A DNA stretch of 64,000 nucleotides, taken from Pseudomonadota bacterium. Its GTDB lineage: Bacteria; Pseudomonadota; Gammaproteobacteria; Burkholderiales; Gallionellaceae. Shown piece by piece: positions 78-4,084 of this stretch. Location of the stretch: contig JBMOPZ010000040.1 of NCBI GenBank assembly GCA_049321355.1, forward strand, positions 59,410 through 123,409. The letters are read 5' to 3'. The position numbers were made by a program, and so were the translations under genes. How positions within the stretch are numbered: the stretch's first letter is position 1; every line of letters starts with the position of its first letter. A model generated the notes under the pieces. It had not been told where the DNA came from and made no database searches. It saw nothing but the letters and a program-made list of their open reading frames with translations.

Positions 78-102
78 CCCCGCTTGAGCGTAAGGTTAGG
101 CA
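78..102 (-). mobile_element. Left half of an attC-like site after hicB
   Basis: Minus strand reads TGCCTAAC-CTTACGCTCAAGCGGGG. The hicB stop TAA lies inside the inverse core GCCTAAC. No right half is visible before the REP repeat. Confidence 0.6.
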
Positions 103-308
103 GCGATTTCGAGGTACTCAACAATGCTTGCCGGTTGCGGGATGGGCAACCCGTCTTCGATAAGCCCCTCGATATGAAATTCGATGGCCTCACGAATCTC
201 GCGCTCCGTTTCTTCAAGGGTAAATCCTGTGGCGACGCAACCGGGCAAGTCCGGCACGTAAGCAGAGAAATTGTTTTTTGTTTTTTCGACAACGATAGCG
301 TAGCGCAT
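96..308 (-). CDS. hicB: HicB-family antitoxin (short form)
   Basis: 70 aa, MRYAIVVEK..FSAYVPDLPGCVATG.TLEE motif typical of HicB; directly downstream of a hicA-like frame. Confidence 0.9.
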   Translation of the reverse strand: MRYAIVVEKTKNNFSAYVPDLPGCVATGFTLEETEREIREAIEFHIEGLIEDGLPIPQPASIVEYLEIAA

Positions 309-311
309 ATG

Positions 312-500
312 CTAGTCCTTTAATTGTGCCTGTTTAAGTATGCTGTTCAACGTGCCGGGCGCTAAATCATCGCTTGGTTTTCCGGGTACGGTGACACGAC
401 CTCTCTTGACGGGATGCTTGAATTACCGATGGCTACCTCGCGTTGCGGCGAGATACCAACCCTCCGCTTTTAGCATGAGCAAGATTTCATTTACTTTCAT
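312..500 (-). pseudogene. hicA: HicA-family toxin with in-frame nonsense codon
   Basis: Manual translation: MKVNEILLMLKAEGWYLAATRGSHR*FKHPVKRGRVTVPGKPSDDLAPGTLNSILKQAQLKD*. TAA at 423-425 falls where GSHRQFKHP normally has Gln. Confidence 0.85.
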
Positions 501-540: not shown

Positions 541-565
541 TGCCTAACGTTTGAGTTGGCCGTCA
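541..565 (-). mobile_element. Right half of an attC-like site (core GTTAGGC) starting the hicAB cassette
   Basis: Minus strand TGACGGCCAACTCAAAC-GTTAGGCA. GTTAGGCA is the exact complement of TGCCTAAC at the hicB end (95-102). Confidence 0.6.
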
Positions 566-1143
566 TTTGCGAGGATCTCTGATACTCGCGCTCGAATAGT
601 TGGAATGAGCTCGTCTTCAAACCATGGGTTGCGTTTGAGCCAAAAATTATTGCGTGGGCTTGGATGGGGCAAGGGGACAGTATTTGGCCAATACTTTCGC
701 CATGCCTGAACTGTCTCGGTGACTGATGCAGCTTCGCCCGGAAGGTGGTAAGCCTGCGCGTACTGCCCGATGACAAGCGTAAGCTCGAGAGCCTTCAAGC
801 GCGATAGTAACGCTGCACGCCATGCTGAAGCGCATTCGGATCGCGGAGGTAGATCTCCAGACTTACCCGTTCCCGGAAAACAGAACCCCATTGGAAGGAT
901 GGCAACTTGCTTGGCATCGTAGAAAACTTCGCGGGAAATGCCCAACCATTCGCGCAGCCTGTCCCCACTAGCATCATTGAAGGGCACGCCCGTTTCGTGA
1001 ACCTTTCTGCCAGGTGCTTGACCCGCGATCAAGATACGAGCCGACGGGTGCAGTTGCACGATTGGGCGCGGCCCTAGCGGCAGATGTTCAGTGCAAAGCT
1101 TGCAGGCACGAACTTCAGTAAGCAATGCGGCGAAAGAAGACAT
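544..1143 (-). CDS. Uracil-DNA glycosylase superfamily protein
   Basis: 199 aa; N-terminal CxxC, GQAPG motif, MGFCFPG..DLPPR.EC and C-terminal LPHPSPRN motif. Confidence 0.85.
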   Translation of the reverse strand: MSSFAALLTEVRACKLCTEHLPLGPRPIVQLHPSARILIAGQAPGRKVHETGVPFNDASGDRLREWLGISREVFYDAKQVAILPMGFCFPGTGKSGDLPPRSECASAWRAALLSRLKALELTLVIGQYAQAYHLPGEAASVTETVQAWRKYWPNTVPLPHPSPRNNFWLKRNPWFEDELIPTIRARVSEILANDGQLKR

Positions 1144-1149
1144 TCGGGG

Positions 1150-1187
1150 CGCTTTTTGCTGTCCGAGTGCATGTGATTGTTAGCTGC
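1150..1187 (-). mobile_element. Left half of an attC-like site after the TIR gene
   Basis: Minus strand GCAGCTAAC-AATCACATGCACTCGGACAGCAAAAAGCG; the TIR stop lies inside the inverse core; truncated just before the UDG start codon. Confidence 0.65.
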
Positions 1188-2244
1188 CGTTCTCTTGCTC
1201 TTCGTCCGACGAATTACTAGGAGTTTCTTTCAATTTTGAATAACGGTGCAGGTAATGCTCGATCACCATAGGGAACTCTCGCATCATCATGTATTTTTCT
1301 TTCGATATAAAGCTGAATTCCTTTATAAACGGGCCATGAAAGGTCATCTCTGATGCATCTCGAAAGATGCGAAGCGCTTCCTTCAATTCAATACCACTAC
1401 CCGATTTTGCGGCTCGATATGCGTCTAGACCAAGCTCGTAAAGCCAAGGGAAGTCATCTTTAACCAAACTTGCAATAAACAATATTCCAATCGGGTCGTC
1501 GGAACGTTTAGAAACCATATGCACCATTTCATCAATCATCATCGGATGAAATTTTCTAAATGGTCTTTTTCTATACCGTTCGGGTTCTTCGATTACTCTA
1601 CGTTCAATGCGGTCTGGAAGATCCCTAACCATCAATTTCATTTCTTCCAGCAACTTTGCAACAGCGCCCTCATCCGTTGACGACTGTTCTTTTGCCGAGG
1701 TTGGCTCTTTTAGTTGATTGAGGACCTCGTTCGCCGTTTCCTTAAAAGTCTGAACCTGAGTTTTTACAACGTCTTCGTCAGGTTCAAGAGAAGGAATACG
1801 CTCACATAATTGCATTACCAGCTTGGTAAGGGAATCCTCGCTGTCATCACTGTTTTGGAATTGATAGAAAGGCCCCGTTCCGACACGATTAAGAGAAACA
1901 CCAAGCGCAATACCATGAACTGGGGTTTCCAACTTCCCTTTTGCAACGCCAGCTTCGTATAGAATCCAAGGACGATCTACACTTCTTTCTGTCAAAAGAC
2001 ACACCACATCGGACGCGCTATCCAGTTTTGTCATTAGCCTCTTATACCAATCGTCGCCGAATTGAATTCCCTCAGTTCCCTTCTTATCTGAGGAGCGAAA
2101 CGATTTGAGCATTCCGGCGCTCACGCTTTTTAGCAGCTTACTGAACGCTTCTGCCAACCCCGCATCTCGGCTGTCATGGCTAATAAATATCAACGGCTTA
2201 TCTATTGACTTGGTTGTCTTCGATGCGCTCTCTTCGTCTGTCAT
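1180..2244 (-). CDS. TIR-domain protein with uncharacterised C-terminal helical domain
   Basis: N-terminal IFISHDSRD...VVCLLTERSVDRPWILYEAGVA matches bacterial TIR domains including the catalytic Glu; visibly AT-richer than neighbours. Confidence 0.85.
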   Translation of the reverse strand: MTDEESASKTTKSIDKPLIFISHDSRDAGLAEAFSKLLKSVSAGMLKSFRSSDKKGTEGIQFGDDWYKRLMTKLDSASDVVCLLTERSVDRPWILYEAGVAKGKLETPVHGIALGVSLNRVGTGPFYQFQNSDDSEDSLTKLVMQLCERIPSLEPDEDVVKTQVQTFKETANEVLNQLKEPTSAKEQSSTDEGAVAKLLEEMKLMVRDLPDRIERRVIEEPERYRKRPFRKFHPMMIDEMVHMVSKRSDDPIGILFIASLVKDDFPWLYELGLDAYRAAKSGSGIELKEALRIFRDASEMTFHGPFIKEFSFISKEKYMMMREFPMVIEHYLHRYSKLKETPSNSSDEEQENGS

Positions 2245-2276
2245 GATTTTTGTTTCTCCTTCCTGTGTATTTTTGA

Positions 2277-2340
2277 GCAGCTAACTTAAAGTAGACGGAA
2301 AAAATGCCGTATATCCTGAGACCACCTGCCATATATCCTG
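2277..2340 (-). mobile_element. attI-like leader: core site plus two 14-bp direct repeats
   Basis: Core GTTAGCTGC (minus, 2277-2285) complements the inverse core at 1179-1187. Plus-strand repeats TGCCGTATATCCTG (2305-2318) and TGCCATATATCCTG (2327-2340). Confidence 0.45.
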
Positions 2341-2457
2341 CTTAACCACATTTACCCCTTTGATTCTAAAATACTTAAACACGCTAACATGGCGAGTGAT
2401 TCCGTGAAAAGCGGCATGTCCTCCCATAACTCCCCGGCAAGGATACCCGAACCGCAT

Positions 2458-3246
2458 TCATGCCGTAAGCCTGCGCCGCAACCAAAAGCTGATGCCATCA
2501 ACGGCGACGATCATCAACAGCATGGCGATAATCACGGTGGCGGCTTGTTGCATCTGAAACAGTGCGAGGTGGTATTTCAGCATTTGCCCGAGGCCGCCCG
2601 CGCCGACCACGCCGAGGATGGCGGCGGCGCGGATGTTGTTTTCCCAGCGGTAGAGTGTGTAGGACATGATCTGCGGCAGGGCTTGCGGCAAGGCGGCGTA
2701 GTAAAAAGCCGCCAGCGGTTTCACGCCGTTGGTGCGCAGGGTCGTCTCCGCTGCGGGGGGCAGGTTTTCCAGGGTGTCGGCGAACAGCCTCCCCAGCACG
2801 CCGGTGGTGTGTACCGCCAATGCCAGCGTGCCGGTGAACGGCCCCAGTCCGGCGGCGATCAGCAGTATCACCGCCCAGACCAGTTCCGGGACCGAGCGCA
2901 GGGCGTTCAGCAACAGGCGCGTCGGCAGCCGCGCTGTCGCGCCGAACCGTCCGCCCGCCACCGGTGCCAGCGCGAGGCCGAAAATCAGGGCGAGCAGCGT
3001 GCCGATTGCCGACATGGCGAATGTTTCGACCGCACCGTCGGCAACTTTCACGATGAAGTCCCACGCCAAATCGGGCGGCGCAAAGCCGCGCAAGAATTCC
3101 GCCGCAGTGCCGATTGCCGTGGGGGTAAACAGGGTGTGCCAGTCCAGGGGCAGCGAGTAGAAGCTGGCGCACACCAGCAACAGCAAGCCTAGCAGGAGCG
3201 CGATTGTGGTCGGGGTGGGCGGGTTGGGTGGGCGGTAGGAATGCAC
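2458..3246 (-). CDS. PhnE/PtxC-family ABC transporter permease
   Basis: LRSVPELVWA, GxLGRLFADTLE, YRWENNIR..ILG.VGAGGLG motifs. GTG start at 3246 chosen (ORF track starts at 3294). Confidence 0.85.
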   Translation of the reverse strand: MHSYRPPNPPTPTTIALLLGLLLLVCASFYSLPLDWHTLFTPTAIGTAAEFLRGFAPPDLAWDFIVKVADGAVETFAMSAIGTLLALIFGLALAPVAGGRFGATARLPTRLLLNALRSVPELVWAVILLIAAGLGPFTGTLALAVHTTGVLGRLFADTLENLPPAAETTLRTNGVKPLAAFYYAALPQALPQIMSYTLYRWENNIRAAAILGVVGAGGLGQMLKYHLALFQMQQAATVIIAMLLMIVAVDGISFWLRRRLTA

Positions 3247-3250
3247 GGCG

Positions 3251-4084
3251 TTATCCCAATCGCTTGCGCAGCAGGCCGCTGAGCGCGTCGGCACACGCCA
3301 CCAGCAGCATTAAAACAATCAGCAGGGTCGCCACTTCGCCCCCGGCCAACATTTTCATCGACTGGTCGAGCTGTTGCCCCAGGCCGCCCGCGCCGACGAA
3401 GCCCATGATGACCGAGCCGCGAACCGCGCATTCCCAGCGGTAACAGGTGTATGACACCAGTTCGGCGGCGCAGGTTGGCAGCACCGCATACAGCAGGGTG
3501 TTGAGGCGACTGCTGCCGTTTTGTAACAGCGATGTGCTGACGCTGGCTTCCGCCGATTCGAGTATCTCGGCATAGGCCTTGCCCAACATGCCGCAGTAGG
3601 TGAGGACGATAGCCAATACGCCGGCGGTGGGCCCCAAGCCGACGATGCGCACGAACAATAATGCCCAGACCAGCTCGGGAACGCTGCGTAATACCACCAG
3701 CAGCCAGCGCACGGCTTGTCGCAGTAACGCGCCCGGCAGGCGCATCCGTCCGGTTTCCATGCGCGATAGGGATAGGGAGGCGGTCGCCAATAGCGTGAGC
3801 GGAATCGCGCCCAGCAATGCCAGCACCAGCCCGACAGTGGCGATGGCGACGGTTTGCCAGGTCGCGTGCAGTGTCAGTTGCAAAAATTCAGCGGAGTATT
3901 CCGGCGGCACGAAGTCCGCCAGAAAGCTGCCCGTTGCGCGCAGGCTTTGTCCGTCCAGCAATATCCACGGCTGAAACTCGCAAGCCAGCAGCAGCGGCCA
4001 CAGCAGCACCAGCGCGATCACCGATAGCGTCAGGCGACCCTGCCACGCGGGGTCGCGGTGATGGTTGCGGTTGGCGGGACTCAT
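3251..4084 (-). CDS. PhnE/PtxC-family ABC transporter permease
   Basis: LRSVPELVWALLFVRIVGLGP and YRWECAVRGS.IMGFVGAGGLG motifs. Confidence 0.88.
   Translation of the reverse strand: MSPANRNHHRDPAWQGRLTLSVIALVLLWPLLLACEFQPWILLDGQSLRATGSFLADFVPPEYSAEFLQLTLHATWQTVAIATVGLVLALLGAIPLTLLATASLSLSRMETGRMRLPGALLRQAVRWLLVVLRSVPELVWALLFVRIVGLGPTAGVLAIVLTYCGMLGKAYAEILESAEASVSTSLLQNGSSRLNTLLYAVLPTCAAELVSYTCYRWECAVRGSVIMGFVGAGGLGQQLDQSMKMLAGGEVATLLIVLMLLVACADALSGLLRKRLG

Follow-up and report, generated by a model that had tools for sequence, protein, structure and literature searches.

In a 64,000-nucleotide stretch of a Gallionellaceae genome (contig JBMOPZ010000040.1, positions 59,410 to 123,409; hereafter the window), one minus-strand gene encodes a 354-residue protein in which an N-terminal TIR domain is joined to a methionine-rich helical C-terminal domain. 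We propose, with a probability of about 0.5, that this protein is a self-contained, single-protein abortive-infection NADase receptor that would work much as SpbK does. The protein has a TIR fold with a catalytic-type motif, its gene has no linked partner and moves horizontally, and its C-terminus is replaced among relatives. An earlier note on this DNA had described a stand-alone sensor-effector carried as a mobile cassette. The solitary position, the horizontal movement and the swapping of C-termini agree with that description, and the cassette part has to be given up. The gene and its parts are as follows.

1180..2244 (stop codon included), minus strand: whole gene of the 354-residue TIR and methionine-rich helical-domain protein (list of open reading frames (ORFs), homologues, GC content).
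1795..2196, minus strand: TIR domain, residues 17-150 (Pfam TIR_2; PADLOC TIR-TM, spbK and ThsB; Foldseek 8wcf, 9phb, 8fz9 and 4c7m; hhalign).
1954..1956, minus strand: codon of the putative catalytic residue E97, a glutamate (GAA, which reads ttc on the plus strand; invariant in 48 of 48 sequences).
1591..1794, minus strand: two-helix hairpin, residues 151-218 (AlphaFold2 (AF2) model; invariant columns).
1546..1590, minus strand: arginine-rich linker of low confidence, residues 219-233 (predicted local distance difference test (pLDDT); composition).
1225..1545, minus strand: all-helical C-terminal domain, residues 234-340 (AF2; composition; Pfam and PDB searches).

The reading frame starts with ATG, and its 354 codons fill the interval 1180..2244 exactly. 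Judged from its homologues, it is a genuine gene and a chance ORF is excluded, because 5.8 billion protein clusters, when searched, yielded 3460 homologues at E<=1e-3 (90%-identity clusters), the best 120 of which are about 355 residues long and align over the full length with 58-88% identity. An exhaustive HMMER search of 1.84 billion 50%-identity representatives gave 2499 matches at E<=1e-3, including 286 at E<=1e-30. The peptides quoted in the earlier note were all found in the translation: PWILYEAG at residues 92-99, VAKLLEEMKLMVRDL at 195-209, FHPMMIDEM at 232-240 and DPIGILFIASLVKDDFPWLYELG at 250-272.

We modeled the protein with AF2 using 48 diverse family members, and the model reached a mean pLDDT of 79. 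Its TIR region is an alpha/beta domain spanning residues 17-150, with pLDDT values mostly between 83 and 97. In the Foldseek search, the top PDB matches were EcThsB, SpbK, BcThsB and BtpA (probability 0.99-1.0), and the entries 8wcf, 9phb, 8fz9, 4lzp/4c7m, 2ndh and 7ylf were matched at probability 0.96-1.0, indicating the flavodoxin-like TIR fold. The sequence of the domain is marked by a box-1-like LIFISHDSRD, a catalytic-type motif S88-x4-W93-x3-E97 and GPFYQFQN. All 48 aligned sequences keep S88, W93 and E97 of the SVDRPWILYEAG motif unchanged. In enzymatic TIRs (SARM1, plant TIRs, AbTir and ThsB), the catalytic glutamate lies four residues after the tryptophan, in helix alpha-C, and E97 is therefore the putative catalytic residue. 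Pfam TIR_2 (PF13676) matches the protein with an E value of 1.2e-5. Relatives with the same N-terminal module exceed the TIR_2 cut-off (P0158, 33.1 bits; P0212, 31.7 bits; P0194, 30.3 bits), and a precomputed PF13676 match is present in most family members. The hhalign comparison of the family with two phage-borne TIR proteins, mEp390 gp47 and P2_AC1 gp02, gave a probability of 97.8% and an E value of 1e-12 over residues 19-148 only. The family match, the fold, the hhalign probability and the invariance of E97 together confirm the N-terminal TIR domain with the PWILYEAG glutamate that the earlier note had recognized. By its motif, the domain appears to be of the NAD-cleaving type, and NADase activity would be expected of it.

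The TIR domain is followed by the hairpin, whose helices span residues 157-179 and 192-218 in the AF2 model and include the invariant residues E200, E201 and K203. What had been noted before as a short coiled segment is the second helix of this hairpin. From the alignments, the hairpin is part of the conserved N-terminal module, and the matches of relatives with other C-termini end most often at about residues 210-229, with a smaller group at about 170-189. The linker behind it has pLDDT values below 50 at residues 220-228 and an arginine content of 34.5% across the family. Among 75 genomes, the mean pairwise identity is 77% in the TIR domain (minimum 57%), 43% in the tail and 13-25% at the termini. 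The N-terminal module alone is common to 53 of the listed 50%-identity representatives, which carry 49 mutually unrelated C-termini; this number is an upper estimate, and some of the variants may be assembly or frameshift artefacts. The alternative C-termini include a ricin-B beta-trefoil lectin and, in the relative P0265, TPR repeats. Of all the comparisons among relatives, this modularity tells most: an apparently constant effector combined with interchangeable C-termini is a hallmark of single-chain immune sensors.

The C-terminal domain is modeled as a compact seven-helix bundle of residues 234-338 with pLDDT values of 74-97. It had been described as a helical tail of about 130 residues; the helical character is correct, and the length is rather about 105 residues (234-338) plus a disordered end. 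In 75 family members, methionine accounts for 11.0% of the tail versus 2.0-2.4% of the TIR and hairpin regions. About 11 methionine positions and several histidines are conserved in the tail. The tail also contains the motif D(D/E)xPWLYExG with a nearly invariant PW, which echoes the catalytic DRPWILYEAG. We considered the tail as a degenerate TIR duplication and rejected this origin, since hhalign aligned only 11 columns of the two sub-profiles at a probability of 21%, indicating a motif echo. The 39 family tails scanned against Pfam had no match in common, and a PDB sequence-profile search with the tail returned designed helical repeats only, together with a marginal GajB stretch at an E value of about 1. 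The Foldseek search of the full model against PDB and BFVD found only matches consistent with a TIR or nucleoside 2-deoxyribosyltransferase (NDT) type of fold at the N-terminus or matches with low TM-scores. With no relatives in these Pfam and PDB profile searches, the domain is assignable to no named family, as had been supposed. As far as can be told, the methionine richness of the tail and the arginine-rich linker have not been described before.

Relatives of the gene were collected by a motif-seeded scan with one genome per species, and the best 80 loci were analyzed. The family is present in at least 211 species genomes from more than 10 bacterial phyla. The best 80 relatives, with 48-69% identity, belong to Nitrospirota, Gamma-, Alpha- and Deltaproteobacteria, Acidobacteriota, Planctomycetota, Verrucomicrobiota, Chloroflexota, Bacteroidota, Actinomycetota and Ignavibacteria, and one relative was found in a metagenome-assembled genome (MAG) of Bathyarchaeota. 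Cultured carriers are Dysgonomonas hofstadii DSM 104969 (L070) and Noviluteimonas lactosilytica A6 (L075). The GC content of the family gene is below that of its flanks in 67 of 71 loci by a mean of 6.8 points (Wilcoxon p ~1e-12). The similarity of 48-69% across phyla therefore points to repeated horizontal transfer of the family, and the GC deficit agrees with it. In the window, the gene has a GC content of 44.3% versus 55.3±3.2% window-wide and is the lowest 1-kb stretch in the 64 kb. Its GC at third codon positions is 44%, and that of the neighboring genes is 52-82%. Because of this composition, the gene is a horizontally acquired single-gene islet of low GC content.

No partner gene is adjacent, as the earlier note had stated, according to the Pfam list of the neighbors, the PADLOC scan of the 61 window ORFs and the clustering of neighbors in the 80 loci. 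The gene is flanked by two phosphonate ABC permease genes (phnE) on one side and a family-4 uracil-DNA glycosylase (UDG) gene on the other, and no ThsA-type match that could serve as a Thoeris partner was found in the 61 window ORFs or the 80 loci. The PADLOC scan detected no ThsA, CD-NTase, Pycsar cyclase, Argonaute or SIR2 across the 64-kb window. For CBASS, Pycsar and short-pAgo systems, the protein has no SAVED, STING, cNMP-binding or APAZ tail domain, and the window has no cyclase, CD-NTase or Argonaute. No complete known defence system is evident among the 61 ORFs. When four genes on each side were clustered in the 80 loci, no conserved neighbor emerged, and any neighbor family was common to three loci at most. 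The lack of a partner in the 80 loci and in the window means that effector and sensor are one protein or that the partner is unlinked.

In the following scheme, the NADase activity, its activation by clustering, the nature of the ligand and the anti-phage phenotype are inferred. The TIR domain and the hairpin would form the effector, a latent NAD+ glycohydrolase that is active only on TIR clustering. The methionine-rich C-terminal domain, perhaps with the arginine-rich linker, would be the sensor or regulator keeping the enzyme off. The trigger would be a ligand derived from the phage, with an abundant oligomeric or hydrophobic/amphipathic phage protein as the most plausible candidate. Ligand binding would bring the TIR domains together, NAD+ would be depleted, and phage replication would be halted. 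A more doubtful step, which we consider possible and would not bet on, is that the tail represents an unrecognized class of immune sensor. Its methionine-lined surface, with the arginine-rich linker before it, would read a conserved phage protein through one of its hydrophobic or amphipathic elements and license the assembly of the almost invariant TIR NADase. By a similarly tentative analogy, recognition by a methionine-lined tail would resemble that of the SRP54 M-domain, which does not imply homology to SRP54. Until the ligand is bound, the tail motif D(D/E)xPWLYExG might keep TIR domains from assembling by serving as an intramolecular decoy. If the sensor-class proposal is true, the family would be a phylum-spanning single-protein pattern-recognition receptor in soil and groundwater bacteria that is missed by current defence finders.

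Several observations weigh against an immune receptor of this type. The 77% identity of the TIR domain across phyla is unusually high for an arms-race gene, and the TIR_2 match of 26.2 bits is slightly below the gathering score of 28. The family is near-absent from sequenced phages and plasmids, with 2 of 2.9 million viral contigs positive. The immediate neighbors are mostly housekeeping genes, both in the window (phosphonate ABC transporter genes, UDG and dihydrolipoamide dehydrogenase) and in other loci, such as the pyrimidine biosynthesis genes, RNase II and cytochromes at the P0084 loci. The TIR protein of the P2_AC1 locus (AC1), the nearest relative with a validated function, needs its transmembrane (TM) partners, and its authors proposed a signal producer and not a depleting effector (PMC9122126). 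Housekeeping neighborhoods and the very strong purifying selection on the TIR domain also suit a non-immune enzyme, a regulated NAD(P)+/nucleotide N-glycosidase of host physiology (stress, dormancy, redox or metal) whose Met/His-rich tail senses an endogenous cue such as oxidation, Cu(I) or a hydrophobic metabolite. Foldseek matches the related folds of DNPH1, MilB and NDT with scores similar to those of the TIRs, and a methionine content of 11% with conserved histidines is typical of redox and metal sensors. However, the patchy cross-phylum spread and the GC deficit indicate an accessory gene and not a core gene, and no metabolic neighbor is conserved. The profiles group the domain with defence TIRs and not with NDT or DNPH1, and the lectin and TPR swaps at the C-terminus are typical of immune receptors. 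We regard a non-immune enzyme as unlikely on this balance.

The protein could also produce a signal as ThsB does, making a messenger of the cyclic ADP-ribose (cADPR)-isomer or His-ADPR type for an effector elsewhere in the genome. The best structural matches are ThsB proteins (8wcf and 8fz9), the authors of the AC1 study proposed that its TIR protein signals to TM effectors (PMC9122126), and five of 122 neighbor proteins in the 80 loci are ThsB-like or TIR_2, recalling the multi-TIR arrays of Thoeris. However, no ThsA, SLOG, SIR2, Macro, caspase or TM partner is linked in the 80 loci or in the window, and a gene transferred alone across phyla could not depend on a cognate effector encoded elsewhere, which makes a signal producer quite improbable. 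Single-gene horizontal movement, the GC deficit and the closeness of a decayed hicAB pair might instead reflect a selfish toxin or addiction module, a latent NADase toxin with the C-terminal domain as cis-acting antitoxin that stabilizes the carrier DNA. We give this very little credence, as there is no integrase, transposase or repeat around the gene, the family is rare on plasmids and phages, and the hicAB adjacency is limited to one lineage among the loci examined. The cassette of the earlier note fares worst. A lone promoter-proximal gene with a composition unlike its surroundings would fit an integron gene cassette, but neither the 36-nt downstream spacer nor the flanks contain an attC-like inverted repeat. 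Flanking direct repeats, a tRNA gene, an integrase and a cassette array are also lacking, the UDG gene is 36 nt off, and the neighbors are housekeeping genes, so an integron cassette is practically negligible as an explanation.

The single-protein receptor, which we prefer, bears on a wider question. TIR enzymes are an immune currency common to bacteria, plants and animals, and the systems differ in how infection is sensed. A TIR effector fused to a sensor is already an established kind of system; unusual here are the tail without detectable relatives, its methionine richness and the near-invariant TIR domain, in a family that is captured by no PADLOC system model. The family is annotated only as "TIR domain-containing protein" despite thousands of sequence clusters. 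Should it defend, a new sensor domain would be gained, together with a very compact system of one gene of about 1 kb. Should it not, the family would exemplify highly conserved bacterial TIRs that serve physiology, a class that is poorly charted as well. The same TIR-hairpin on about 49 tails is a natural sensor-swap experiment, in which each tail is comparable against a constant effector. The gene lends itself well to experiments at low cost, but one more TIR candidate would not surprise specialists.

The region 5' of the gene is 213 nt long and holds two further features.

2256..2261, minus strand: Shine-Dalgarno sequence AAGGAG, read in the sequence, 11 nt 5' of the ATG.
2305..2340, no strand assigned: tandem 14-nt direct repeat TGCC(G/A)TATATCCTG with copies 22 nt apart, a candidate operator from the repeat search.

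The two repeat copies, TGCCGTATATCCTG (2305..2318) and TGCCATATATCCTG (2327..2340), both lie in this intergenic region, 60-95 nt 5' of the start codon, and the repeat is a candidate regulator-binding site. A consensus scan of the upstream region gave no sigma-70 consensus promoter. No public RNA sequencing run with the gene was found. The sequencing runs that contain it are mainly groundwater, subsurface, freshwater, drinking-water and biofilm metagenomes. An identical protein is present on six public contigs, with the same gene arrangement in the five shown. We looked for an empty-site comparator among public runs that share part of the k-mers; these were low-coverage assemblies of the same strain, and no joint skipping the gene was found.

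The UDG gene (544..1143, minus strand; Pfam UDG, E 1e-25) starts 36 nt past the stop codon of the TIR gene, and the two genes, being on the same strand, may be co-transcribed. Among 80 metagenomic loci of UDG orthologues (63-90% identity), none contained the TIR gene, phnE or hicB, and the TIR-UDG pairing therefore looks accidental. The eight best of these loci, inspected in detail, showed no synteny past UDG itself. Beyond the UDG gene lies the decayed hicAB pair, and farther away are ordinary housekeeping genes, with dihydrolipoamide dehydrogenase among the neighbors. The hicB frame (96..308) is intact and has hicA upstream. The hicA toxin frame (309..500, minus strand) has an in-frame stop at codon 26 (423..425) in the context ...ATRGSHR*FKHPVKRGRVTVPGKP..., with the remainder intact, and hicA is uncalled in the five public contigs. 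The stop falls at what we take to be the family consensus GSH-x-x-F-x-HP. The HicA toxin looks inactivated, or read-through would be needed. UDG and hicAB were considered as functional partners of the TIR protein and rejected, since their adjacency is specific to this lineage and hicA has the in-frame stop. The PADLOC scan of the window ORFs also gave isolated matches to BrxP (two ORFs), PDC-M72A, mad3, mad8, QueC, an ankyrin model and MzaA.

In the related loci, about 10-13 of the 122 immediate neighbors are defence-like among the top 25 families, an uncontrolled minority share. They include ThsB_TIR (three), TIR_2 (two), DNA methylases, AAA_21, a GajB-like helicase, a DRT reverse transcriptase, a type IV restriction enzyme and PDC candidates. 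A second short TIR/ThsB-like gene lies directly downstream in L075 (11023..11499), L079 (2518..2937) and L017 (7428..7844), forming a tandem pair of unrelated TIR genes without ThsA. We also considered hidden TM partners as in AC1. Among close co-directional neighbors, TM segments are predicted at all in just 5 of the 27 upstream proteins and in 3 of the 42 downstream ones; small TM proteins are not enriched beside the family gene, and these partners were rejected. On one of the two viral contigs (L176), the family gene is in an accessory cluster with DUF2971 and Mrr_cat (Mrr-type nuclease), and on the other (L177) a terminase-like ORF, recognized by eye, lies within a few kb of it. A plasmid match (H6) on the megaplasmid of Ralstonia sp. 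RS647 (NZ_CP086266.1, 1317994..1318722) covers residues 35-281 with 52% identity and is unannotated; this copy is probably truncated or decayed. In L072, a Bordetella-labelled MAG contig (CAMDLH010000082.1, ~2452..3369), the TIR part and the hairpin-plus-tail part are in separate overlapping ORFs, and this apparent split would reflect a pseudogene with a frameshift or an error of the assembly.

A literature search for a named system with the architecture of a TIR domain and a methionine-rich tail found none, and we compared the protein with the closest known systems. The PADLOC TIR-TM profile (PDLC03016) matches it partially, with residues 57-224 aligned to profile positions 36-201 of 293 at an E value of 1.9e-10. 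The same profile matches mEp390 gp47 at an E value of 1.6e-57. The gp47 gene is a moron of the lambdoid phage mEp390 with its own terminator, located between the Q antiterminator and holin genes. The solitary gp47 and its relative P2_AC1 gp02 share 38% identity. Both proteins appear to be represented by the TIR-TM profile, gp02 being linked to it only through this identity. From its position and sequence, gp02 would be the published AC1 TIR protein. The three genes of the P2_AC1 locus, for a TIR and two TM proteins, give E. coli protection from the phages lambda and LF82_P8 and from P2-like phages (Rousset et al., 2022; PMC9122126). Both gp02 and gp47 resemble the window protein in having an N-terminal TIR domain followed by a helical tail, and all three share (K/L)IFIS(W/H), PWI(L/N)(Y/F)E(A/T)G and GP(F/I)(Y/L)QFQ. 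However, the identity is 25-32%, the similarity ends with the TIR domain, and the tails are unrelated. The AC1 TM partner genes are lacking here and in the 80 related loci, and the AC1 and mEp390 genes are phage-borne, whereas the window family is chromosomal in environmental bacteria. By sequence relationship, the window protein shares its TIR sub-clade with a validated defence protein and is not a member of the AC1 system.

The ThsB proteins EcThsB (8wcf) and BcThsB (8fz9) resemble the window protein as the top Foldseek match (E 2.3e-3, probability 1.0), the catalytic glutamate is kept, and PADLOC gives weak ThsB matches. In contrast, they consist of a TIR domain only, of about 200 residues, and work with an adjacent ThsA, whereas the window protein has an additional 200 residues and no ThsA. 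In a survey of E. coli, 12 of the 32 TIR clusters assayed gave protection against phage, and several did so as single proteins (Wang et al., 2024; PMC11350192), a reasonable prior for a defence role. In TIR-II, -V, -VI and -IX, one TIR protein, alone or with TPR, defends in a manner dependent on the catalytic site (PMC11350192). The P0265 relative, with the same N-terminal module and TPR repeats, can be likened to the TPR-bearing E. coli systems. By their description, the E. coli systems carry TPR, TM, AAA, DUF4238 or nothing, and not a methionine-rich domain, which sets the window protein apart.

The closest parallel in mechanism is SpbK of the Bacillus subtilis element ICEBs1 (PDB 9phb), in which a phage oligomer, the YonE portal, switches the NADase on by gathering TIR domains into two-stranded assemblies (PMC12847820). 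SpbK is likewise a single-protein TIR, matched by Foldseek at a probability of 1.0 and a target-normalized TM-score of 0.61. The PADLOC spbK match (E 1.9e-5) covers the TIR region only, at profile positions 139-214 of 308. Unlike the window protein, SpbK has the TIR domain at the C-terminus and the sensor at the N-terminus, so that the order is reversed, and there is no similarity outside the TIR domain. By analogy, SpbK would be the best mechanistic model for the window protein.

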